A stretch of DNA of 64,000 nt from NCBI GenBank assembly GCA_964349125.1, contig CAYGFH010000003.1, positions 103,194-167,193 of the forward strand. Reading direction: 5' to 3'. This stretch comes from an uncultured Gammaproteobacteria bacterium. GTDB taxonomy: Bacteria; Patescibacteriota; Microgenomatia; UBA10105; UBA927. How positions within the stretch are numbered: position 1 is the first letter of the stretch; the number at the start of each line of letters is the position of its first letter. The notes below the pieces were generated by a model that searched no databases, was not told the DNA's origin, and saw only the letters and a program-made list of their open reading frames with translations. A program made the position numbers and the translations under genes. Below are positions 6,268 through 42,811 of this stretch, one piece after another.

Positions 6268-7028
6268 CAACGAAACGAATAATCCCTTGCCTGGATATGA
6301 CAGAAGGCAAAGTAGTAAAAGGTATACAGTTTATCAATTTTCGCGACGCCGGGGATCCTGTGCTGCTTGCAAAGCAGTACAGTGAGACGGGTGCGGACGA
6401 ATTGGTATTTCTGGATATCACAGCCACTACACAAAACAGACCGATACTGCTGGATGTGGTATCACGCACTGCTCAAAACGTGACTATCCCCTTTTCTGTC
6501 GGCGGGGGTATCCGGACAGTCGATGATATGCGCCAGATTTTGCGTGCCGGAGCTGACAAGGTATCGGTAAACACCGGCGCGGTGGTAAATCCTCAATTGA
6601 TCACGGACTGCGCAAAGACATTCGGATCGCAGTGTGTCGTGTTATCACTGGATGCGAAAGAGGTTCGGCCCGGCAAGTGGAATGCGTTTATCGAGGGTGG
6701 TATGAAAGATTCCGGCCGTGATGCCGTCTCCTGGGCGAAAGAAGCTGCACTTCTGGGAGCCGGGGAAATACTCCTGACCAGCATAGATCAGGATGGTACA
6801 AAGAAAGGGTTTAATGTGGCGCTCACAGCACAGGTATCGGCTCAGGTACCCGTACCTGTTATCGCATCCGGCGGCGCCGGAAGGAAAGAAGATTTCCGAG
6901 ATATCTTTACAGAGGGCATGGCAGATGCAGCGCTGGCAGCATCGCTCTTTCACTTTGGTGAATTAACCATCCGCGAACTCAAAGAGTATCTGGACGAAAA
7001 TAGCATTCCAATCAGGAGGATAGTATGA
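6264..7028 (+). CDS. hisF: Imidazole glycerol phosphate synthase, cyclase subunit
   Basis: [12 protein letters not shown]... is a typical HisF N-terminus. 254 aa TIM barrel. Confidence 0.92.
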
Positions 7029-7357
7029 ATCCTCCGACCGTACGATATTCAGCCGCCGACGGCTTAGTACCTGCCATCATCCAGGACACGCAGTCACGCG
7101 AAGTGCTGATGCTTGGATACATGAACGCTAAGTCACTGGAGTTGTCCACTACAACTGGATATGTCTATTTCTACAGCCGCAGCCGTGGCAGGCTCTGGAA
7201 AAAGGGTGAGACGTCAGGCAATCTGCTTAAAATTGATGCGATATCCATCGACTGCGATAGTGATACGCTGCTCATTGAAGCTACCCTTTGTGGCGCTGCA
7301 GTCTGTCACACAGGAAGTCTGTCCTGTTTCTTTACACCAATCGGGAGGGATGTATGA
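7025..7357 (+). CDS. hisI: Phosphoribosyl-AMP cyclohydrolase
   Basis: 110 aa with HisI conserved motifs. ATGA overlap with the next gene. Confidence 0.8.
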   Translation: MNPPTVRYSAADGLVPAIIQDTQSREVLMLGYMNAKSLELSTTTGYVYFYSRSRGRLWKKGETSGNLLKIDAISIDCDSDTLLIEATLCGAAVCHTGSLSCFFTPIGRDV

Positions 7358-7632
7358 CACTCGCGAAGCTCTATACTATCGTGAAATCACGGGCAAAGGA
7401 AAACCCGTGTGGATCCTATGTGACATCTCTGTTTATTTCCGGTCGTGACAGGATAATTCAGAAAGTGGGAGAAGAAGCCTGCGAGGTCCTGATCGCCGCG
7501 AAGAATACAGATAAAAAGCGGCAAATTGAAGAGATCAGCGATCTGCTGTTTCACGTACTGGTACTACTGGTTTCCCTTAATATCCCCCTTTCGTCGGTTT
7601 GGGATGAATTGGAGCGCAGAAACAATACGTAG
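7354..7632 (+). CDS. hisE: Phosphoribosyl-ATP pyrophosphatase
   Basis: ~92 aa MazG-like HisE starting MTLAKLY. ORF track gives 7288, but the ATG at 7354 overlaps the hisI stop. Confidence 0.75.
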   Translation: MTLAKLYTIVKSRAKENPCGSYVTSLFISGRDRIIQKVGEEACEVLIAAKNTDKKRQIEEISDLLFHVLVLLVSLNIPLSSVWDELERRNNT

Positions 7633-7656
7633 AGCCATGATATACTACAAAAATAT

Positions 7657-8727
7657 ATGAATCCTCTCCTGATTTCCAATCCCACAAATATCCGGTATCT
7701 GACGGGATTTGTGGGGGCATCTCCTACTGAGCGGGAAGCGTACGTGCTCCAGGCAAATAACAGGATTTACCTGTTTATCAACCCGCTCTACCGGGAAGAG
7801 GCTAAAGACTGCGAAGCACGTGTAGTCAACTGCACTGCAATTGAGGTATCCAGAGATCACCCGTTTTCCCGGGAACTTGCGTTGATCTGTGAAAAAGAAT
7901 CGATCCAGAAATTGGATTTTGAGGAGGATGATTTGAATGTTTCAGAGTATGAGACACTGAAAAACGCGCTCAAGAGAACAACGCTCATTCACAGCAGACA
8001 ACGCATAGAAAAGATCAGGCAGATCAAACGGCCTGATGAAATCGCATCTATACAAAAAGCGGCAGAGTTGACAGACGCATGTTTTAGAGCAATCGTACAA
8101 TTACTAAAACCAGGTGTTACAGAATCAAAAATTGTTTCTGAGATAGAATATTTTTTCAAGAAGCACGGACATGAGAGCGCATTTTCCCCCATCGTAGCAT
8201 TTGGGAAAAACACGAGCAAACCGCATTATAATAGCCTGTCCGACGGCGCCAGAAAATTTCAAAGCTTAGCTTTAAAATCAAGTGATATGGTGCTTCTGGA
8301 TTTTGGCGCAAAGGTAAACGGATACTGCGCCGATATGACCCGCATGGTATTCCTTGGCTCACCCATACCACAATGGCAAACCGCATACGATGCGTTGCTC
8401 GCAGCTCAAACGCATGCACTATCGCTCCTGTCTTCGGGAGAGCGAAACGGAGCCAAAATCGACAACGAGACCAGAAAGATTATTGAACATGCTTCTCTGC
8501 CGACCTATCCGCATAGTCTCGGACATGCGTTGGGCCTGGATATACATGAAACTCCTCGGCTATATAAAAATATTGATGAAGAGATACAGACAAATATGGT
8601 CATAACCATAGAGCCGGGCGTCTACGTTGACGGCGAATTCGGGATGAGGATTGAGGATACGGTACATATCACAAATTCCGGTATCGAAATATTGACACGC
8701 ACACCAAAGGAACTACTTGTTATATAA
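7657..8727 (+). CDS. M24 family Xaa-Pro aminopeptidase
   Basis: Creatinase/prolidase N-terminal region plus M24 metal ligands (HGHESAF..., HSLGHALGLDIHE). Confidence 0.85.
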   Translation: MNPLLISNPTNIRYLTGFVGASPTEREAYVLQANNRIYLFINPLYREEAKDCEARVVNCTAIEVSRDHPFSRELALICEKESIQKLDFEEDDLNVSEYETLKNALKRTTLIHSRQRIEKIRQIKRPDEIASIQKAAELTDACFRAIVQLLKPGVTESKIVSEIEYFFKKHGHESAFSPIVAFGKNTSKPHYNSLSDGARKFQSLALKSSDMVLLDFGAKVNGYCADMTRMVFLGSPIPQWQTAYDALLAAQTHALSLLSSGERNGAKIDNETRKIIEHASLPTYPHSLGHALGLDIHETPRLYKNIDEEIQTNMVITIEPGVYVDGEFGMRIEDTVHITNSGIEILTRTPKELLVI

Positions 8728-16607: not shown

Positions 16608-17684
16608 TTACGCGCCGATTTTGAATTCAATGACATCGCCGTCCTGTACTATGTACTCTTTTCCTTCAAACCGAGCTTTGCCGTGCTCGCGAGCTGCTTT
16701 CCAGCCACGGAGTGTGGTGAAATCGCCATAAGAAACCGTATCAGATTTGATAAACTTCTTTTCAAAATCCGTATGGATCGTGCCAGCAGCAGCCGGCGCC
16801 TTCATACCCTTTTCTATCGTCCATGCCCGCACCTCTTTTTCCCCGCAGGTCAAAAATGAGATGAGGCCAAGCGTCTCATATGCTTTACGGATCAACAGAT
16901 CCAGTCCCGATGCCGTAACGCCGAGAGAGGCAAGATACTCTGTCTGCTCATCTGCATTCATACCAGCGAGCTCAGATTCCGTCTGTGCACAGATAAACAC
17001 GATCGGTGAAATCGGCGTAGATGGCGGTGTCGCCAGTTGGCCCTCGGACACATTCCCGATATAGAGAATCGGTTTCATGGTCAAAAGCTGGAGCGGCACA
17101 AGCAGTTCCCACTCATCGGGATCGGTAATGACCGTGCGGGCCAGTTTGCCTGCATCGAGCTCAGGTTTGAGGCGCTTGACCAGTTCAAAGCGTGCGCGAT
17201 CCTCTTTCGTCGCGTTCATTTTCGGTTCAGTTTGTTTGCTCAGGGTCTGTAAGTCAGACAAAATCAGCTCTGTTTCCACAATCTCCCGGTCACGTCCGGC
17301 ATCTGGCGCTCCCTCGACGTGGACGATATTGGGATCTTCAAAAAATCGCAGCACATGGCAAATAATGTTTACCTCGCGTATGTGGGACAAAAATTTGTTC
17401 CCCAACCCCTGCCCTTCTGACGCTCCTTTCACCAGTCCCGCAATATCCACAAACTCAACAACAGCGGGTACAAGCGGAGGCAATTTTTCCAGCTTTTCTT
17501 CCTCTTTGGTAATCTCGGCTAGCTTAGCAAGACGTTCATCAGGTACCGGGACAACACCTATATTTGGTTCAATCGTTGCGAATGGATAGTTGGCAGCCAA
17601 CGCCTGCTGTTTTTTAAGCAGCGCATTAAATAAAGTAGACTTCCCCACGTTTGCCAACCCAACGATGCCGATTTTCAGATTCAT
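16608..17684 (-). CDS. ychF: Ribosome-binding ATPase YchF
   Basis: G1 GLANVGKST, a TGS domain and a C-terminal YchF domain. Confidence 0.9.
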   Translation of the reverse strand: MNLKIGIVGLANVGKSTLFNALLKKQQALAANYPFATIEPNIGVVPVPDERLAKLAEITKEEEKLEKLPPLVPAVVEFVDIAGLVKGASEGQGLGNKFLSHIREVNIICHVLRFFEDPNIVHVEGAPDAGRDREIVETELILSDLQTLSKQTEPKMNATKEDRARFELVKRLKPELDAGKLARTVITDPDEWELLVPLQLLTMKPILYIGNVSEGQLATPPSTPISPIVFICAQTESELAGMNADEQTEYLASLGVTASGLDLLIRKAYETLGLISFLTCGEKEVRAWTIEKGMKAPAAAGTIHTDFEKKFIKSDTVSYGDFTTLRGWKAAREHGKARFEGKEYIVQDGDVIEFKIGA

Positions 17685-17765
17685 GGGGATAATTGTAGCA
17701 TGAAAAGAAGATTTATTGTTATGATTCCACCCGACTCACATGAATCGATTCATGTGAGTTATTAT
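17685..17765. repeat. ~80 bp promoter/operator module, copy A, containing a 20 bp perfect palindrome
   Basis: GGGGATAATTGTAGCATGAAAA...TTATGATTC...CACATGAATCGATTCATGTGAGTTA. Read on the minus strand it gives an extended -10 (TGCTACAAT) a few nt upstream of the ychF ATG. About 88% identical to copy B. Confidence 0.7.
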
Positions 17766-17817
17766 GCATACTCTTGGTATTCCCACACTATGCATGCTAT
17801 TGAAGTAATATACGGTT

Positions 17818-19020
17818 TTAATTATTCTGCCATTCAAATGATCTTGCTGTGTTTGTGTTAGGTTTAACAAACTTTACGCCGACCTCGTAGAGTCTTGAGT
17901 TGCTTTCATCGCGTGTAGTTCCATATTCCTCTAAAATCTTCTCAGCAATCTCCGGGGTATGCGCGAAGAATATATGATATTTGGCAGGCGTTTCACGATC
18001 GAGAGGATTCACAATTATAAACTCACTCGCTTCTGATGGCAATAATGGCAACGCTAATACACTGGCTCTGGATCCTGTATTTCTAAAAACAGCTTCAAAT
18101 TCCTGTGCTACGTTACCCCTTACGATTTGACAGTATTTTATATACGTATCAAAAAATGTATCTGCATATTTTCCGAGTTCAGGGTATTGAAGAAGTGAAG
18201 ATGTAATACTTTCGATCACCTGCGCTCGTTCCAAAACGCTGTAATTTGGAAAATCCTCATGAGAAAAGCGATCAATATCTTCTGTCGTTACTCCAATTTC
18301 CAATTTTTGTTCCTGTGACATTCCCGAATACCGTCTCCATAATTTTGGAGAATATGTCTGTACTGCTGCTACCAGTTTTTTCAGCAAAAATATGTTCCCC
18401 TCCTCCTCGGATTCGATGGCGAACATATGACTTAATACAGCGTCCTCGTCAGCATCAGCATTTGTAACTCCCTCGGCTAACCGTCCCAGAAATTCCTGTG
18501 GTGACACAGAAAGAATAAGTGAATCTTCTAAAATTTTAAAACCTTTTCTGACGCGTTCAGATCCAATTTGCCAACCGGGTGTTCGTCCGAATTGCTCAAT
18601 TAATACTCGTGCAGCAGCATACCGCACAGGAACAGAGCCTTCCGGAACTGTGTGGATATATTCACTTGGAACTGCTCGTGGATCGAAATTAAACGGGATT
18701 TCTGCTGATGGTCTTTTTTCTGATTGATGTAATAATTCATATAGGCTTGGGTTCAATTCTTTTGCCTTTTCCAAGATCCAACCACCCACAAGGTTACATT
18801 CAGCATACCGTTGAATTGTCTTTTCATTCCCACCGAAGGTTTCAGCTACCATTGAAGGATTTGGACAACCGTCAAGTACACCTAAAACACGTAAACGTTC
18901 ATCTATCGATGCATCAGGAAAGTAGTTATCTGTGCCTTCGACCCAATTTTTCGCAAAATGTAATTCTGCTGAAATTTCAACTGTCATAATAGTCGGATAA
19001 TTTGAATCGAATAATACCAA
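17818..19020 (-). CDS. Hypothetical protein (400 aa), accessory cassette
   Basis: Long ORF with below-average GC and no recognisable motif. Confidence 0.5.
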   Translation of the reverse strand: MVLFDSNYPTIMTVEISAELHFAKNWVEGTDNYFPDASIDERLRVLGVLDGCPNPSMVAETFGGNEKTIQRYAECNLVGGWILEKAKELNPSLYELLHQSEKRPSAEIPFNFDPRAVPSEYIHTVPEGSVPVRYAAARVLIEQFGRTPGWQIGSERVRKGFKILEDSLILSVSPQEFLGRLAEGVTNADADEDAVLSHMFAIESEEEGNIFLLKKLVAAVQTYSPKLWRRYSGMSQEQKLEIGVTTEDIDRFSHEDFPNYSVLERAQVIESITSSLLQYPELGKYADTFFDTYIKYCQIVRGNVAQEFEAVFRNTGSRASVLALPLLPSEASEFIIVNPLDRETPAKYHIFFAHTPEIAEKILEEYGTTRDESNSRLYEVGVKFVKPNTNTARSFEWQNN

Positions 19021-19124
19021 AATCCAGCCAGGAAGTCAAACTATAGGTCTTATTTTATAACCTAACTCTACGTCAAAAGTATTATATTTTGAAATCCCGA
19101 TATGTCTAGGTCTAAAGGAATTAA

Positions 19125-19673
19125 TTACCGAATATCTACATCCATGTATCCATCAGGAGCAAGAAGATCATATGCCTGCCGAAGAAATTTTTCCCTAAAA
19201 TCATCCAACTGCACACCTCTGGCTGATAGTACTCTGAGCGCATCAAAATCAGGATTAGAACCAACAAAGCGATGTGAGTGTATGAGGTCGAATGTTCTGC
19301 CAGAAAGAATAGGGATACTTCGTAAGCCACCACTTATAACCGTTTGAATAACATCCGCACTAACCCAATGAAGCAGTCTCGCGTCAACCCCCTCCTGTGG
19401 TTTTACATCGACTGAAAATACCTGGGCACCAAATACGGCACAGGTTCTGGAAAACCACGGAGGATACTCACTCGCCAATGATCCTGAGGCAATATCCAAC
19501 ACATATTGACCTTTAAGCACTGACCATGGAGCATCAGGTGATATCCAATTAGCAATTGCAGTTCGAAGTATTGCTATCGACGGCTTCGCCCGTTTGGCAT
19601 CTTTGCCAAACAACGGATGCAACCTATCCATCGCTTCTTCTACGAAATTTGGAGACATGTCATATTCATTCAT
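19125..19673 (-). CDS. Hypothetical protein, possible class I SAM-methyltransferase fold
   Basis: VLDIASGS (weak motif I) and LLAPDGYM (post-II-like). 182 aa. Confidence 0.4.
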   Translation of the reverse strand: MNEYDMSPNFVEEAMDRLHPLFGKDAKRAKPSIAILRTAIANWISPDAPWSVLKGQYVLDIASGSLASEYPPWFSRTCAVFGAQVFSVDVKPQEGVDARLLHWVSADVIQTVISGGLRSIPILSGRTFDLIHSHRFVGSNPDFDALRVLSARGVQLDDFREKFLRQAYDLLAPDGYMDVDIR

Positions 19674-19711
19674 TGAAGTATAGATATTCTTTCATCAATC
19701 GTGTGTGATTC

Positions 19712-19792
19712 TGGGGATAATTGTAGCATGAAAACCTGATTTATAGTTATGATTCTACTCAATACACATGAATCGATTCATGTGAGTTAGTT
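19712..19792. repeat. ~80 bp promoter/operator module, copy B, containing the 20 bp palindrome
   Basis: Near-identical to copy A, including TGCTACAAT and CACATGAATCGATTCATGTG (core ~19765-19784). Sits ~40 nt upstream of the minus-strand gene that starts at 19673. Confidence 0.7.
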
Positions 19793-19851
19793 TCGCTATT
19801 TTCTGATGTGTCTAGCTATTTCACACTTAGTATATGTTACGATTCCATGGA

Positions 19852-20886
19852 TTATATTAGAGAATGAAGTCTATTAAATTCTGAAAACCCTCCATTTATT
19901 ATTTTACCTTTCTGAAAATTAGGCGCCCAACTCCGAATGTTATCTGATATCGTTTCCGCTTCATTGAAAGATACTACATGTAAAACTGGTTTTTTTGGGA
20001 TATGTGATAAAAGATCTTTTATTATATCGTCCTTTGCTCTATAACCGATTATATAAATTTCATCAGCTTGTTTAACCATTTCTTTACCTTTTTCAATAAC
20101 TTGTTCGTAAAAATTTATAAAATGGTCTAATTTCTTCTGAGCAAGTGGTAAAAATACCAGTGGATAGAAATAATCCATTCTTAAATTATCCCATACGTTT
20201 GCAATATCTGTATAACGAATTTGCTCGAGAGATGGACGTAATACCCGCAATGTTTTAATAGGAATCGCTCCATTCATGAAAAAATTATCCATAGCTAAAT
20301 CAATCCGAGTTTTCATATCACTATTGGTCGGAACTATCGGATCATTTTCTCGCTTTTCAATTACCCAGTTAACAGATCCGTGAGGCTTAATAAAGTTTGC
20401 TTCAAGATAGCTACTCATGCTCAAAAAACTCGTGTGAAAAACTTCTTCATATGCCCTATCCAACAGAGTGTCATAATTAAAGTTTATTATTCCAAACTCT
20501 TCATCTTCTACGTAAAGACTATTCAGAAAAGATCTATAAATATTATTTGCGCTATAAGTATTTGAGACATTTCTTAGAGTATTCCAAATGTACATAACGA
20601 TCCTGCCAAAAAGTCTTAACTGGGATTTTTTATGTATGGGTGATTTAATTTCTTCAATTTTTTTCCATTTTTCTCCTAACCATTCTTCAACAGAATTATT
20701 CTTTTGCAAAACTATTTCTTGTCTGAACACACCTAGCTCGCTAGATGTGAGCATATAGAGCGAATGCTCTTTATATCGACCATCGAATAGCTCATCTATT
20801 AACGGAGCCCTTAATGGGGAGGATAGTGGATATTCATTATTCTGAGATCCTAATGACGCACCGGCACCAAATATATAAATTTTCAT
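19852..20886 (-). CDS. SIR2_2-like (sirtuin-superfamily) protein, putative NADase-type defense effector
   Basis: N-terminal IYIFGAGAS, INFNYDTLLD and KPHGSV match the SIR2_2 (PF13289-like) signature. The gene is conspicuously AT-rich (~32% GC). Confidence 0.6.
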   Translation of the reverse strand: MKIYIFGAGASLGSQNNEYPLSSPLRAPLIDELFDGRYKEHSLYMLTSSELGVFRQEIVLQKNNSVEEWLGEKWKKIEEIKSPIHKKSQLRLFGRIVMYIWNTLRNVSNTYSANNIYRSFLNSLYVEDEEFGIINFNYDTLLDRAYEEVFHTSFLSMSSYLEANFIKPHGSVNWVIEKRENDPIVPTNSDMKTRIDLAMDNFFMNGAIPIKTLRVLRPSLEQIRYTDIANVWDNLRMDYFYPLVFLPLAQKKLDHFINFYEQVIEKGKEMVKQADEIYIIGYRAKDDIIKDLLSHIPKKPVLHVVSFNEAETISDNIRSWAPNFQKGKIINGGFSEFNRLHSLI

Positions 20887-21061
20887 ATTTTGTTCGCGAA
20901 GTTTTTACGGGGAGGCTTGATTGGAGTCGCTCTAGGTATACTTCGCCAGTATATTTTTCTTGAATATAACAAATGACTTCTTAATTAGCAACGGATTAAT
21001 TCGAGTGCTAATTTTAGAGCATTATAACAATGCAAAGAGGATATTATGCTATGATAAATAC

Positions 21062-21709
21062 ATGAAACGGTTGGGTGGATATGCACTATCCATACTGCTT
21101 TTAGCCTCAATACTTCTTAATGGGTATTTCGTCCTCTCCAAACAAAAGGAATCCACGGTGGTAGATGTGCATGACGGGGATACGTTTACCCTCGGTGATG
21201 GGCAACGGGTGCGTTTACTGGGCGCGGATGCTCCTGAAACCGAGAGATGTGGCGCTGAGGACGCGAAAAAACTTCTGGAATCACTTGTGCTTGGAAAACA
21301 AATCCAAATCACCGATGAGAAACGGGATACCTATGGCAGGCGCATGGGACTTGTGTATGTCGGAACGACACCCGTAAACGAGCAAATGCTCAAACGTGGA
21401 TTTGCCCGACCAGACTATACGGCAAACAGTAAATCAAATGCTCTGAAAATCGCATATAAAGAAGCCACAGATGCGAAGCGAGGAATCCATTCATCCCTGT
21501 GTAAAAACATTGCCCCAACTCCCCCTTCTGCCAACTGTACCATCAAAGGGAATATCGATAAGGCAACCTATACTTATTATTATCACCTACCCACATGCCG
21601 GCACTATAATCAAATCGTACTTGATGCGGACATGGGTGAACAGTTTTTTTGCAGCGAGACGGAAGCGAAGGCTGCAGGATTTACATTGGCGCCTGATTGT
21701 CTGCGGTAG
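21062..21709 (+). CDS. Membrane-anchored staphylococcal-nuclease (SNase) family nuclease with a C-terminal Cys-containing domain
   Basis: VVDVHDGDTFTL...VRLLGADAPE SNase core after an N-terminal TM helix. C-terminal CTIKGNI...YHLPTC..YNQI...FCSETEAKAAGF domain. ORF track start 20960; ATG at 21062 follows an AAGAGGA RBS. Confidence 0.75.
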   Translation: MKRLGGYALSILLLASILLNGYFVLSKQKESTVVDVHDGDTFTLGDGQRVRLLGADAPETERCGAEDAKKLLESLVLGKQIQITDEKRDTYGRRMGLVYVGTTPVNEQMLKRGFARPDYTANSKSNALKIAYKEATDAKRGIHSSLCKNIAPTPPSANCTIKGNIDKATYTYYYHLPTCRHYNQIVLDADMGEQFFCSETEAKAAGFTLAPDCLR

Positions 21710-22526
21710 GCGCACGATAAGACTCTGTATTTATCCGCTGCATATACCCCAACTGACGTTCCAGTGGCGCAATCGGCGCATCAGGATACGCGAGAATGAG
21801 AATCTGTGTGGTCATAAATTGATGCTCCGGGTACGCACCGTACACAGTAATCCCACGCGTTTCCCATTCATGCAGCGATTCCCAGTATAACAGTGAGTTA
21901 AAACCCGTAATAAGCATACCTAGCTTTGGGTGGAGAGATTCCATAACCGCTTGCATTGCCTGTCGCTGGTGATGATGATGCTCCAGTCCACCGAAGTATT
22001 CATGCACCAGATGAAATCCCTCCGGAGCAATCTGTTCTTTTAATCTAACCAGAGCAGTGGTATCCAGTTCTGAAACATAGGTGATATCTGCCCTTGATCT
22101 TCGAGCCATTGCCAATTCGGAAGCCGATGGGCAACTGAACCAATGACCCAATAGACTTTCAGCACCTTCAGGATCGCTCTGACTGTATGTTCTAAGAATT
22201 TCCAATGTTCTCACGCTATCTTGTGCATTAAACTGTTCCTTATTAGTCACTGTGCAGGTAATGCGACTGTTTACGAATCGTGGAAGAATTGATCTAACGG
22301 TTTTGAAGCCAACACCCAAGCCGCCCCCTAGGTCAATACACTGCACGTCCCGTAGTGCATATCTGTTTACCAAAACGCTCACAGCACCAGCTACTGCCAT
22401 ATCTATATCCGCCGGTATAAGATTGCCTGCCGGAGATTCCTGATGGACAACACCACAAAGATTCCCGATATTGAACGTCTCATACATCGGTGCCGGTATC
22501 TCTGATGGTTTAGGTCGCTCTGTCAT
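21681..22526 (-). CDS. Class I SAM-dependent methyltransferase
   Basis: Motif I IDLGGGLGVG. Confidence 0.6.
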   Translation of the reverse strand: MTERPKPSEIPAPMYETFNIGNLCGVVHQESPAGNLIPADIDMAVAGAVSVLVNRYALRDVQCIDLGGGLGVGFKTVRSILPRFVNSRITCTVTNKEQFNAQDSVRTLEILRTYSQSDPEGAESLLGHWFSCPSASELAMARRSRADITYVSELDTTALVRLKEQIAPEGFHLVHEYFGGLEHHHHQRQAMQAVMESLHPKLGMLITGFNSLLYWESLHEWETRGITVYGAYPEHQFMTTQILILAYPDAPIAPLERQLGYMQRINTESYRAPTADNQAPM

Positions 22527-22529
22527 ATC

Positions 22530-22967
22530 CTAGTGTCCGGCCTGATAAAACACCTCCATAGAAGATTCTGAAAGCATACGGACGAGGAAACTCATCGGAT
22601 ACCCTTCAACGCCCATAAAATTCGATTGCACGACAGGATGATATGGCTCAAAATCCCTAACTGAACCACCAATCAACCCACCATACCCACCATCGATTTC
22701 CGGAATTACGTCTCTAAAATACTTTGGAGACACATGGTACATATGCGCTTCACCATTTGCATCTATAGAAAATCCATCCACACACGGACCGGCACCCAGC
22801 ACTTTATAGTACAAACCCGCATGCATTTGTTGAATTGAATCTGATAGGACAAATATTGCAGCACCGGAATAGTACGACAACACATTTGCACGGCAGACAG
22901 ATATATCAAATCCACCGATAGATACCCTGTGTACATCATAATTTGGTGGTAAAAATCGTTCGGTCAT
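22530..22967 (-). CDS. Hypothetical protein
   Basis: 145 aa ORF tightly packed 3 nt downstream of the methyltransferase. Confidence 0.4.
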   Translation of the reverse strand: MTERFLPPNYDVHRVSIGGFDISVCRANVLSYYSGAAIFVLSDSIQQMHAGLYYKVLGAGPCVDGFSIDANGEAHMYHVSPKYFRDVIPEIDGGYGGLIGGSVRDFEPYHPVVQSNFMGVEGYPMSFLVRMLSESSMEVFYQAGH

Positions 22968-22972
22968 AGGGA

Positions 22973-23491
22973 TTATCTTTCCGCGAATGCCCAGCTGGTC
23001 GGGTGGTACTGAACTTCGACTGATTCCAGATCAAAATGAAACTGTGCGTTTTCCTCAGTAAAAATCGCTGCATTACGATCCATATCGAGTGGCATCCTCG
23101 TTTCTTCTTCTTCATGCAACGCCCTCTCCTGGGCAAACGATGATACGAGATTATTTCTCACACGCTCCATTGCAGCATCTATTGCTACCAACGGATTTTT
23201 TCCGTATCTGGCAATGCTGTTTTCTCCATTGTCGCGCGGATATACCGATCCATCGATACCATCAACTTTATGAGAGCCGTATTCGTTGTCATTGAGTGTC
23301 ACTGAATATGAATAGCCTGCATCCGCAATAAAATTGCCGAGAACGGACGCTATATCTTTTGGAACAGTATTACCCTTCATCTGAAAACGAAACAGAAATC
23401 CCTGAAGGTTATCCTTTCGCTTTGATGCTATCAGTTCCACTTGTACACCAAGTTTTTCCAATGCTGATATGTATTTCTCTTCCTGTCCCAT
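22973..23491 (-). CDS. Hypothetical protein
   Basis: Start taken at the internal ATG (MGQEEKYIS) to avoid overlap with the upstream gene. The longer ORF reaches 23581. Confidence 0.35.
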   Translation of the reverse strand: MGQEEKYISALEKLGVQVELIASKRKDNLQGFLFRFQMKGNTVPKDIASVLGNFIADAGYSYSVTLNDNEYGSHKVDGIDGSVYPRDNGENSIARYGKNPLVAIDAAMERVRNNLVSSFAQERALHEEEETRMPLDMDRNAAIFTEENAQFHFDLESVEVQYHPTSWAFAER

Positions 23492-23510
23492 ATGCCATGT
23501 ATACACGCTT

Positions 23511-24155
23511 CTACTGTGTTGCCTGTGTGGTGGGCGTCGGTGTCGGCGATTGGGTGATCTGATTGGTCGGGTTTGCAACATCCACTATAAAATTTCGCTT
23601 CACAAGTTCTGATATATTCCCTACTCCATCTTTTGCCTGAACCATAAACGTGTGAGAACCATTTGATACCGATGAAAAACAGGGAGCGTAATTTTGATTC
23701 CAATCACTCGGTGAACCCGCATCCATGCCGTAGCGCACAGTGATAGGCGACGATGCATCGCTGAACTTCATCGGAAAACAGAAGCTGTTAAATGTCACTG
23801 TTGATCCTTCTGCCGGTCCTGTCATGTAATCAAACGTCGGAGCACTGGTGTCTGAACTGGGGATCGGTGTACTGGTGAATGTTCGTATAACCGGTGATGG
23901 CGTGGACGTGGCATATTGTACTGCTTTGGGTGTGGGCGTTGGGGTCTTTGTAACGATTCTAGAAGATGATGGGTTCGGGGTGTTCGATGGAAACGTTTCG
24001 GACGATACAGATGGATCCTCTGAAGGCGTCACGATGACAGATGGAATCGATACAGTCGGAGTCGGTGCGATTCGTTTTGCTGTGTACGGAAAATTTCTGA
24101 CACCAACAGCAACGAAAAATGAAAGAAGTGCGGCAACAACAACGGCAATCGGCAT
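23511..24155 (-). CDS. Membrane-anchored Pro/Thr-rich protein
   Basis: N-terminal TM helix, long PT/S-rich linker and a C-terminal globular segment. Confidence 0.5.
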   Translation of the reverse strand: MPIAVVVAALLSFFVAVGVRNFPYTAKRIAPTPTVSIPSVIVTPSEDPSVSSETFPSNTPNPSSSRIVTKTPTPTPKAVQYATSTPSPVIRTFTSTPIPSSDTSAPTFDYMTGPAEGSTVTFNSFCFPMKFSDASSPITVRYGMDAGSPSDWNQNYAPCFSSVSNGSHTFMVQAKDGVGNISELVKRNFIVDVANPTNQITQSPTPTPTTQATQ

Positions 24156-24215
24156 AGGTATACAATGATATACTGTCTTATAGTATATGTCAAAACTGTG
24201 CCAACGCCTGCCCGG

Positions 24216-25085
24216 TTATTCGTGCGCAACTTCTGCGTGCTTTTTGAAATTATTCAAAATCGCCTGCCACCCATCTCGCTGCAACTGTCTCGAGTTCTCA
24301 TTTTCCATCTCGAACGTTACCACCACCTGAACAGACTTCTCTCGTGGGACAAATGTGACTGTGACTTTGCGACCATCTTCCATGCTGTAGTCTATCTGTT
24401 TATGGGTATCTACTTTCGTGTATGTCCCAGTGAAGTCAAATTTGTTCTTCCCATCCTTGGAAGCCATGACCGTGGTAAACGATCCGCCAACGCGTAAATC
24501 GCACGTAGCACTCGGAGCTTCCCAATCATCGGAAGCAAATGCCCATTTCGTCACATGAGACGGATCGTTGTAACAATTCCATACCGTTTCAATCGGCGCT
24601 TTCACATACGCCAGTACACTGATCGTGTGACTTGTGCCTGTTTCCGCCACCTCTTTGAGTTTCGATAATGCTTTGTTCCACAGATCTGTAAACATACCCG
24701 CCATCTCTTCAGGGACATCGATATCAACTACAAATTCTGTCGTCGTTCCCAAATCTCTGAACGTGTAGTTTTCATTTGATGGCGTCCATTTTTTGACTTC
24801 TTCACTGGTGATGTCCTCCACGCCATTCTTTATAATGCCCAGATGGCGAATAGAAATATATTCATGAAGTCTGTTCTCTGCAATCTCACTGGACATACCG
24901 TCCTTTTTGCCAAATTCATTCGGGCCGACAAACCTTATTTTTGAGCCCCGTTCCCACGAACCTTCAATATCTGATCCCGGGGAAAACACTTCTGTCCACA
25001 TCGGATAGGTATCTTTGCCTATAACAGCGTCCCAGACTTTTTCTCTCGGAGCGTTTATACTGATGTGGAAGTGTAGTTGTTTCAT
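24216..25085 (-). CDS. Tandem SRPBCC (AHSA1/START-like) domain protein
   Basis: Two repeats of an Aha1-like SRPBCC fold. Start set at MKQLHFH. Confidence 0.55.
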   Translation of the reverse strand: MKQLHFHISINAPREKVWDAVIGKDTYPMWTEVFSPGSDIEGSWERGSKIRFVGPNEFGKKDGMSSEIAENRLHEYISIRHLGIIKNGVEDITSEEVKKWTPSNENYTFRDLGTTTEFVVDIDVPEEMAGMFTDLWNKALSKLKEVAETGTSHTISVLAYVKAPIETVWNCYNDPSHVTKWAFASDDWEAPSATCDLRVGGSFTTVMASKDGKNKFDFTGTYTKVDTHKQIDYSMEDGRKVTVTFVPREKSVQVVVTFEMENENSRQLQRDGWQAILNNFKKHAEVAHE

Positions 25086-25136
25086 ATACGTACTATAAAT
25101 AATTGTACGAAATATTACAAATACCCGAATATTTTT

Positions 25137-25358
25137 ATGAAAGTTACAGTCATAGCCCACCCAAACGCTAGAAGACCACGCATAGAGGAAGATTTACTTG
25201 GCACTCTGCATGTCTATGTGAACGCTCCGCCTCTGGAGGGTAAAGCGAACAAAGCGGTATTGGAAGCACTTGCCATACACTTTCAGGTAAAGAAATCCCA
25301 AGTGAAACTCGTCTCCGGTGCTACCTCAAAGATAAAAGTTTTTACTCTCGCAATCTGA
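25137..25358 (+). CDS. DUF167 (YggU-like) protein
   Basis: VYVNAPPLEGKANKAVLEALA...VSGATSKIK matches the DUF167 pattern. Confidence 0.6.
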   Translation: MKVTVIAHPNARRPRIEEDLLGTLHVYVNAPPLEGKANKAVLEALAIHFQVKKSQVKLVSGATSKIKVFTLAI

Positions 25359-41886: not shown

Positions 41887-41906
41887 CACATGAATCGATT
41901 CATGTG
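41887..41906. promoter_or_regulatory. 20 bp palindrome, copy C
   Basis: CACATGAATCGATTCATGTG, flanked by TTGTTATGA as in copy A. Confidence 0.7.
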
Positions 41907-42378: not shown

Positions 42379-42420
42379 CTATCACAACTCACATGAATCG
42401 ATTCATGTGAGTTGTGATAG
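42379..42420. promoter_or_regulatory. 42 bp perfect palindrome (copy D) immediately upstream of the TrpR-like gene
   Basis: CTATCACAACTCACATGAATCGATTCATGTGAGTTGTGATAG. The 20 bp core begins ~23 nt upstream of the ATG. Confidence 0.75.
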
Positions 42421-42494: not shown

Positions 42495-42794
42495 CTAGTT
42501 TTGTTTCACGCCCGTTTGATTGCTTCCTTCGGTCATGGCAAGAAGTTTGCCCAATTCTTTCACAAACTTTTTCGCATGACTGCGACTCATACCAATTCGA
42601 GAAACGATTCGGATTTGATTTGTAGTTCCCAGTTTTTGCGCAACATCCAACACCACGCCATCTTCATTGGTAGTCATAAAAATATTGTCAGTATACAGAA
42701 CCGGTGTTGTATCCAAGTTCACATTGACCGATATATTTTGTGTCGCATCTTTTTGATCCATATTTATCCTTTTCTTCATGGGCACACAATACAC
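42495..42794 (-). CDS. Small protein, possibly DUF3467-like
   Basis: About 95 aa. The YTDNIFMTTNEDGVVLDV pattern resembles DUF3467. Its start region overlaps palindrome copy E. Confidence 0.4.
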   Translation of the reverse strand: MYCVPMKKRINMDQKDATQNISVNVNLDTTPVLYTDNIFMTTNEDGVVLDVAQKLGTTNQIRIVSRIGMSRSHAKKFVKELGKLLAMTEGSNQTGVKQN

Positions 42795-42811
42795 ATGAAT
42801 CGATTCATGTG
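42792..42811. promoter_or_regulatory. 20 bp palindrome, copy E
   Basis: CACATGAATCGATTCATGTG. Confidence 0.7.

Follow-up and report, generated by a model that had tools for sequence, protein, structure and literature searches.

The 64,000-nucleotide (nt) stretch of DNA analysed here, referred to as the window, carries a single gene for a SIR2-like protein of 344 amino acids (aa), which lies between the conserved gene ychF and a membrane-anchored nuclease of the SNase family. A first-pass annotation, made from the sequence of the window, had placed this gene in an island of about 6.5 kb of low guanine-plus-cytosine content (GC) and had proposed that it forms an undescribed defence module together with the divergent nuclease, methyltransferase-like proteins and several unknowns. 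Here we find that the SIR2 gene stands alone and that the genes around it are independent of it. Our best explanation, to which we assign a probability of roughly 0.55, is that a stand-alone SIR2_2 (SIRim) gene was acquired horizontally in the slot between the SNase gene and ychF and most likely encodes a lone effector of the abortive-infection type that depletes nicotinamide adenine dinucleotide (NAD). The genomic and structural part of this explanation is near-certain; for the part that makes the protein a defence NADase, judged by analogy with characterised relatives, the odds are roughly even.

Every open reading frame (ORF) listed by the first-pass annotation was recovered at or near the place where it had been reported. 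The following features bear on the argument.

16608-17684, minus strand: ychF, 358 aa, assigned by Pfam; conserved, and bordering the variable stretch on one side as its anchor
17706-21036: variable low-GC stretch from ychF to the SNase gene, 3.3 kb at 37.6% GC, holding SIR2, p182 and unk400
17818-19020, minus strand: unk400, 400 aa (389-400 aa), an ORFan
19125-19673, minus strand: p182, 182 aa, putatively a divergent class I S-adenosylmethionine (SAM)-methyltransferase-like protein
19852-20886, minus strand: the SIR2-like gene, 344 aa, stand-alone and of SIR2_2 type (SIRim type); alone among these features in bearing a defence-like signature
21062-21709, plus strand: the SNase gene, 215 aa, with Pfam SNase and NCBIfam sunset domains
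21681-22526, minus strand: p281, 281 aa, with a Rossmann-like GxGxG motif (IDLGGGLG)
22530-22967, minus strand: p145, 145 aa, lineage-specific
22973-23491/23581, minus strand: p202, 172-202 aa, lineage-specific, with its real start at about 23491
23511-24155, minus strand: p214, 214 aa, lineage-specific, with a transmembrane anchor, a PT-rich linker and an OmpL47/PKD-like domain
24216-25160, minus strand: a double-AHSA1 protein, 314 aa

At 32.8% GC, the SIR2 gene is the lowest-GC kilobase of the entire 64 kb (1-kb windows average 45.4% +/- 3.0), in agreement with its earlier description as a low-GC gene. The island itself proved to be about half as long as had been thought: only about 17706-21036 is low in GC, whereas the DNA from the SNase gene through p214 (21.0-24.2 kb) has 43-48%, which is normal for this genome. 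SIR2, p182 and unk400 share one strand and all lie inside the 3.3-kb insert, with p182 at 44.4% and unk400 at 40.3% GC against the 32.8% of SIR2. The SIR2 and SNase genes are divergent, with 175 nt between them, and p281, p145 and p202 are as tightly packed as had been reported, their ORFs being separated by 3 and 5 nt. Public gene calls were taken from a contig, L174, that is 100% identical to the window over 21 kb; other numbers of this kind denote homologue or relative loci or contigs that were compared with the window.

The SIR2-like protein and its family

The 344-aa ORF contains the motifs FGAGAS, NYDTLL and HGS that had been singled out at first reading. In a 44-sequence alignment of the family, residues N137, D139, H169, G170 and S171 (FNYD...KPHGS.NW) are invariant, and the N-terminal FGAGAS loop (G7-A8-G9-A10-S11) is conserved at 90% or more. 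Most of these family members (37 of 44) match Pfam SIR2_2 (PF13289) at E <= 0.01, the strongest of them at E 7.6e-8, and they match nothing else in Pfam. An AlphaFold2 model based on the same alignment has a predicted local distance difference test score (pLDDT) of 94.5 and a predicted template-modelling score (pTM) of 0.92; in this model, residues 36-127 form an all-helical insertion, and both the model and a Pfam scan resolve a single domain only. The best structural matches in a fold search are defence-type SIR2s. PDB sequence searches were uninformative (phmmer best E 0.068, to an unrelated dehydrogenase; family profile E 0.046, to PsSIR2), and the family profile aligns NYDtLL and KpHGSvNW to NYDLLM and KLHGSINW of PsSIR2. 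The alignment has no invariant or near-invariant cysteine, and therefore no zinc module of the kind that sirtuins build from four cysteines (Cys4), and the window protein does not match Pfam SIR2 (PF02146). Together, these results confirm that a SIR2 Rossmann-type catalytic fold is present and that the protein is SIR2_2-like in both its fold and its catalytic motifs.

Partners of SIR2 were sought in 93 loci that carry a homologue, 13 of them from exact-protein look-ups and 80 from a scan of one genome per species. Searches of these 93 loci by tblastn with unk400, p182, SNase, p281, p145, p202, p214 and AHSA1 returned zero matches, which leaves none of the seven neighbouring proteins within 8 kb of a SIR2 homologue. 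When the ORFs lying up to 8 kb from SIR2 on either side were clustered de novo at 83 loci (24 close and 59 distant, with an actinobacterial subset run separately), no conserved neighbour family emerged; the clusters were just promiscuous families, such as response regulators, sigma factors and ABC components, in varying positions, and no HerA, TIR, Argonaute, nuclease or methyltransferase partner was found among the clustered neighbours. Consistent with the first-pass remark that the gene has no TIR, SLOG, HerA or Argonaute partner, PADLOC gave no match to HerA, TIR or prokaryotic Argonaute (pAgo) anywhere in the 64-kb window, and there was no SLOG match either. The first-pass annotation had undertaken to give up the module if its neighbourhood belonged to no conserved arrangement, and we find that arrangement conserved neither across SIR2 loci nor in close relatives. 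Because no partner is shared among the SIR2 loci, and because the proposed partners are kept in relatives that lack SIR2 (described below), the proposed SIR2-SNase-methyltransferase module is not supported.

The family to which the gene belongs is widespread. At E <= 1e-3 we found 213 stand-alone homologues of about 340 aa; the 120 homologues listed span about 305-382 aa, save for one 213-aa partial, and where a source is named, it is Levybacteria, Curtissbacteria, the Patescibacteria group or Chloroflexi. More distant relatives, at 21-28% identity, likewise occur as single proteins in Bacteria and Archaea, with lengths of about 240-550 aa and mostly 330-470 aa. A motif-based scan of 185,579 species genomes recovered at least about 18 close members, a figure that is a lower bound. 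One homologue, at 8001-9020 of L018 (a Zixibacteria metagenome-assembled genome), is split into ORFs of 142 and 187 aa and is a probable pseudogene or assembly frameshift.

Members of the family are lower in GC than their flanks at nearly all loci. The deficit reaches 10-18 points at about a dozen loci, a count in which the same gene sometimes recurs on duplicate contigs, and Chloroflexi at 66% GC carry a SIR2 copy of 49.5% GC. In low-GC Levybacteria (35-40% GC), the GC of the gene matches that of the host, which suggests lineages of this type as the donor pool. Complete toxin-antitoxin pairs adjoin several members. The SIR2 gene is thus accessory, apparently horizontally acquired and compositionally foreign, and it lies outside any recognisable defence island; its family is a widespread but patchy group of partner-less SIR2_2 proteins of about 340 aa, new and uncharacterised within the SIR2_2 superfamily.

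Variable DNA around a resident nuclease

Two contigs of close relatives, L176 and L175, have flanks that are syntenic with the window. Expressed as aa identity to the window protein, as are all percentages for relatives given here, these flanks include CtpA (99%), S18 (100%), HtrA (95%), SulP (94%) and YchF (92%) in L176, and YchF (93%), SulP (88%) and SSB (90%) in L175, and the gene order SulP, DUF167, AHSA1 ... SNase ... ychF is common to both. The SIR2 gene and unk400 are absent from both contigs and are unique to the window genome in this comparison, and the other genes of the supposed island are present or absent independently of one another. Counterparts of p214, p202 and p145 occur in L176 (60%, 53% and 80%, respectively) and are absent from L175; p281 has a counterpart beside the SNase gene in L175 (66%) and is absent from L176; and the extra gene that follows AHSA1 is a DUF1801 gene in L176 and an unrelated 245-aa gene in L175. 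SNase is found in both (90% in L176 and 71% in L175).

The slot between SNase and ychF differs in each genome. In L176 it holds 54-aa and 308-aa unknowns and then a homologue of p182 (78%), which sits directly upstream of ychF with no SIR2 gene present; in L175 it is empty, and about 55 nt separate the start of SNase from that of ychF. The two L176 unknowns (6668-7859), the larger of which has an N-terminal hydrophobic segment, have 32-33% GC against 46% for the genome and match neither Pfam nor PADLOC; different AT-rich cargo therefore occupies the same site. A different 400-aa gene lies between ychF and rpsF in L175 (12608-13810), so that both sides of ychF are variable in this lineage; its product has a sub-threshold methyltransferase match in Pfam. 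Searches of Pfam and PADLOC with the other variable neighbours, namely the 245-aa protein of L175, a 326-aa protein upstream of ychF in L094 and the products of small genes in L001, L008 and L010, found no match. In the more distant L095 (YchF 65%), SNase (58%) lies about 3 kb from ychF, the two being separated by genes for a kinase-like protein, an EamA transporter and a HAD hydrolase, and there is no SIR2. Alignment of the window with the intergenic sequences of L175 at the junctions sets the window-specific DNA at about 17706-21036. As to marks of insertion, there is no tRNA gene in the window and no Rfam family in 16.0-25.5 kb, and no integrase or transposase was seen. Given that SNase is kept in L176, L175 and L095 without SIR2, it is a resident gene, and the stretch from AHSA1 to ychF is a mosaic of variably present genes around it, not one functional island.

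The SNase protein matches Pfam SNase (PF00565) with 56.4 bits against a cut-off of 21, and a PHROG endonuclease at E 1.3e-15. Its N-terminus is a hydrophobic anchor, MKRLGGYALSILLLASILLNGYFVL, which upholds the earlier description of a membrane-anchored nuclease divergent from SIR2. The longest ORF starts at 20960, whereas both the publicly annotated gene and the homologues begin with MKRLGG, at 21062. Towards the C-terminus, about residues 160-210 match the NCBIfam 'sunset' domain (NF051437) with 30.8 bits against a cut-off of 27; according to NCBIfam, this small Cys-containing domain is also fused to the ribosomal proteins L4, L17 and L20, and a literature search on 'sunset domain' found nothing relevant. 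Since the relatives conserve the protein, the simplest reading is that of a membrane-anchored nuclease that is resident here and is not a partner of SIR2.

Both methyltransferase assignments made at first reading need qualification. The family of p182 comprises 101 representative clusters, and 14 of 50 relatives match Pfam Methyltransf_23/31/25/11/12; the window protein itself reaches E 0.085, which is not a match. The p182 profile matches a SAM-methyltransferase in the PDB at E 1.7e-3, and its motif I reads VLDIASGS. We therefore keep p182 as a probable divergent class I SAM-methyltransferase-like protein, an assignment that holds at the level of the family only. For p281, the motif IDLGGGLG is present as described and the assignment to the class I methyltransferases is unproven: the protein matches nothing in Pfam, NCBIfam or PADLOC and is a near-ORFan, with only itself and one 68% homologue among 5.8 billion protein clusters. 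Its AlphaFold2 model, built on a two-sequence alignment, is not confident (pLDDT 45.8), and the weak Foldseek matches of that model to class I methyltransferase folds (E >= 6e-3, template-modelling score about 0.3) give a weak hint that p281 might be a methyltransferase.

Among the same 5.8 billion clusters, the only match of unk400 apart from itself is a protein of 54% identity encoded on a 1.7-kb contig, and it has no match in Pfam, NCBIfam, PADLOC or PHROG; p145 and p202 have no profile matches. The p214 protein matches NCBIfam OmpL47 (E 7e-7); it is a surface protein, anchored in the membrane, that carries an OmpL47/PKD-like domain. The public gene call in L174 cuts p214 (23511-24168) to an 86-aa C-terminal gene and adds a 106-aa ORF on the opposite strand; since tblastn recovers p214 from L176 at 60% over 220 residues, we prefer the 214-aa ORF on the minus strand to this gene call. 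Elsewhere, the window carries genes of histidine biosynthesis (HisG, IGPD and His_biosynth) and several aminotransferases, and its best protein matches point to Levybacteria, of the Candidate Phyla Radiation (CPR); bacteria of this type usually have very reduced biosynthesis. Two other PADLOC matches in the window are mad3 (E 2.7e-9) and PDC-M35A (E 5e-7).

A 78-nt direct repeat, the copies of which are 88% identical, brackets p182 and unk400.

17684-17761: copy 1, the promoter region of ychF, which has a 26-nt palindrome and, on the minus strand, TGCTACAAT
19712-19789: copy 2, between SIR2 and p182, in front of p182

The repeat holds the sequence immediately upstream of the ychF start codon, including an extended -10-like element (TGCTACAAT, minus strand), and the 26-nt palindrome within it is perfect. 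Its core is also found upstream of ychF in L175 and L176, and in L176 a 20-nt core occurs twice, upstream of p182 and upstream of ychF. We considered an att duplication or integration scar and rejected it, because the core is duplicated in L176 around p182 alone and because the repeat contains the ychF promoter; for these reasons, the repeat is read as a probable duplication of the ychF promoter region. In addition, a 20-nt perfect palindrome, CACATGAATCGATTCATGTG, has five exact copies in the window (17737-17756, 19765-19784, 41887-41906, 42390-42409 and 42792-42811) against 0.01 expected, and the sister contigs L175 and L176 lack it. All five copies are placed directly 5' of minus-strand genes, namely ychF, p182 and the genes for a DUF4153 membrane protein, a TrpR-like protein (155 aa; Pfam Trp_repressor, 25.6 bits) and a DUF3467 protein. 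By its placement, CACATGAATCGATTCATGTG looks like the operator of a small regulon, which is possibly autoregulated by the TrpR-like protein.

Possible function and rival explanations

For the consumption of NAD+ by the SIR2 protein, its role and its control, we draw on the characterised SIR2_2/SIRim enzymes ThsA, DSR1/2, SIR2-HerA, SIR2-APAZ, Avs5 and FAM118. By analogy with these proteins, it would bind NAD+ through the GAGAS loop and cleave the nicotinamide-ribose bond using N137, D139 and H169. It would act alone, with NAD depletion on infection as its most likely role. To our knowledge, every characterised SIR2_2 member switches on through a change in oligomeric state, and it is for this reason that we propose activation by self-assembly, presumably into a higher-order oligomer. 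On these analogies, a defensive role for the gene would be plausible.

Several points weigh against the interpretation as a lone defence NADase. No relative of SIR2 was found on IMG/VR viral contigs, PLSDB plasmids or GenBank phages, no known defence system lies beside the eight homologues with Pfam-annotated neighbours, and a PADLOC scan of the 66 large ORFs of the window detected no complete known defence system. At the level of the protein, the Pfam SIR2_2 score of the window sequence (21.6 bits) falls under the gathering cut-off of 24.5, which is why the SIR2 assignment rests on the fold and the family profile. The SIR2 models of PADLOC give only local matches of 18-65 residues, so the protein falls outside any PADLOC-defined system. 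A bare SIR2 also has no obvious means to sense infection or to stay off, and every characterised bacterial defence SIR2 that we know of has a sensor domain or a partner. Finally, in some Levybacteria (L007 and L014) the SIR2 gene is immediately upstream of ychF in the same orientation, and its product is 58-61% identical to that of the window where YchF is 55-60% identical; conservation on a par with YchF could equally indicate a constrained cellular function.

This last point is the starting point for the main rival view, that the protein is a non-immune NAD-dependent protein-modifying enzyme, an ADP-ribosyltransferase or a deacylase, with a cellular regulatory role that is possibly linked to translation, given that SIR2 recurs beside ychF. 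Besides the window, seven loci from four phyla have a SIR2 homologue no more than 8 kb from ychF, including the two Levybacteria loci just described with their YchF-like level of conservation. We nonetheless regard this view as unlikely, because a regulatory enzyme of this sort is hard to reconcile with a gene that is missing from the two closest relatives, patchily distributed (about 18 close members in the motif scan of 185,579 species genomes) and strongly AT-biased relative to its hosts, or with a product that has no zinc module and no PF02146 match and resembles defence-type SIR2s most closely in structure. Moreover, 0 of 80 metagenome ychF loci carry a SIR2 homologue, and on this account the association with ychF is treated as a hotspot effect or chance: the recurrent proximity may reflect an insertion hotspot upstream of ychF, or may be fortuitous. 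The intervals in which SIR2 lies near ychF include L007 6322-8508, L014 5341-6542, L001 8001-11778, L021 6713-9053, L048 7989-10417 and L089 5970-8378, and the lineages with the two genes within a few kb of each other are Levybacteria, Parcubacteria, Frankiales and Verrucomicrobiae. Such proximity is seen at roughly 4 of the 80 species loci, where a rough estimate would predict about 0.6.

It is much less probable that SIR2 is the toxic half of an addiction pair, akin to a toxin-antitoxin system, with a variable small neighbour, or that it forms a cassette with p182 and unk400. A small same-strand gene does follow SIR2 at several loci (of 152 aa in L008, 103 aa in L010 and 137 aa in L001; in the window it is p182), and toxin-antitoxin pairs lie near several loci, but the downstream genes are not homologous to one another and match neither Pfam nor PADLOC, and the next gene is ychF in L007 and L014 and a convergent TrmB gene in L004. 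The shared strand and the common 3.3-kb insert speak for a cassette; against it, p182 occurs in L176 without SIR2 or unk400, and the three genes differ in GC (32.8%, 44.4% and 40.3% for SIR2, p182 and unk400). In addition, consensus scans, whose matches were no more numerous than in shuffled controls, gave distinct promoter-like sites upstream of SIR2 and unk400, and p182 has the duplicated ychF promoter element. We give hardly any credence to the multi-gene system proposed at first, in which SIR2, SNase, two methyltransferase-like proteins and unknowns would make up one new defence or abortive-infection module. The genes are physically close, SIR2 and SNase face away from each other across their 175-nt gap, and SNase-type nucleases and methyltransferases are known from some defence systems; set against this are the zero proposed partners in the 93 SIR2 loci, the lack of a conserved neighbour family at the 83 clustered loci, the retention of SNase without SIR2 in L176, L175 and L095, the scattering of the remaining genes (p281 only in L175; p145, p202, p214 and p182 only in L176; unk400 an ORFan) and GC values that differ sharply, from 32.8% to 48%.

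The lone-effector interpretation can be extended from the gene to its family, although we put this forward as a tentative and somewhat doubtful idea. The partner-less SIR2_2 proteins of about 340 aa, abundant in CPR and scattered across Bacteria and Archaea, might constitute a minimal, self-contained antiphage NADase, a bacterial counterpart of the bare-SIR2 build of the vertebrate FAM118 proteins. Such an enzyme would sense infection and switch on by means of the SIR2 domain itself and its conserved helical insertion, for instance by forming filaments when infection sets in. If the stand-alone SIR2 does defend its host, it would be the smallest SIR2-based immune effector known and among the few defence genes identified in ultra-small CPR bacteria, and it would pose the problem of how an NADase domain on its own stays silent and is then triggered. 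The main value of our analysis is negative: the combination of SIR2, nuclease and methyltransferases is a chance juxtaposition in a variable chromosomal stretch, and is therefore not worth pursuing as a new multi-gene system.

Comparison with known SIR2 systems

In Thoeris, ThsA is fitted with a sensor domain, SLOG (or Macro/TM), and has the TIR protein ThsB as its partner, whereas the window protein lacks a sensor domain of the SLOG or Macro kind and its gene has no neighbour encoding a TIR-domain ThsB. DSR1 and DSR2 are proteins of about 1000 aa with large sensor domains, located at the C-terminus, in contrast to the 344 aa of the window protein, which is a SIR2 domain alone. It likewise differs from the SIR2-APAZ protein that accompanies a short pAgo in SPARSA, in that it has no APAZ or other extra domain, and no Argonaute or Piwi protein is encoded in the window or among the conserved neighbours. 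From the canonical sirtuin deacylases (CobB, Af Sir2 and SIRT1-7) it is set apart by the lack of the zinc-binding Cys4 module and of a PF02146 match, and also by its phyletic pattern, which is that of an accessory, AT-rich and patchy family and not of a housekeeping one. A literature search combining Patescibacteria, SIR2 and defence systems found nothing relevant.

The closest known protein, at about 19% identity, is the SIR2 subunit of SIR2-HerA (Nezha/GAO_19; PDB 8w9l, 8sub and 8j4u). In that system, a HerA ATPase gene adjoins SIR2, whereas the window gene and 83 homologue loci have no adjacent HerA. The SIR2-HerA systems published so far are active only with their second protein (PMC11514479). 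Taken as a whole, the SIR2_2/SIRim clade shows enrichment near antiphage systems (bioRxiv 10.1101/2024.09.18.613514; PMC12700824). Similar in build to the window protein are the vertebrate proteins FAM118A and FAM118B, which, at roughly 300-350 aa, consist essentially of a SIR2_2 domain without a zinc module or fused sensor. The activity of FAM118B is controlled through its assembly into head-to-tail filaments (PMC12700824), and the protein thereby provides a precedent for a bare SIR2_2 domain that is governed by self-assembly.

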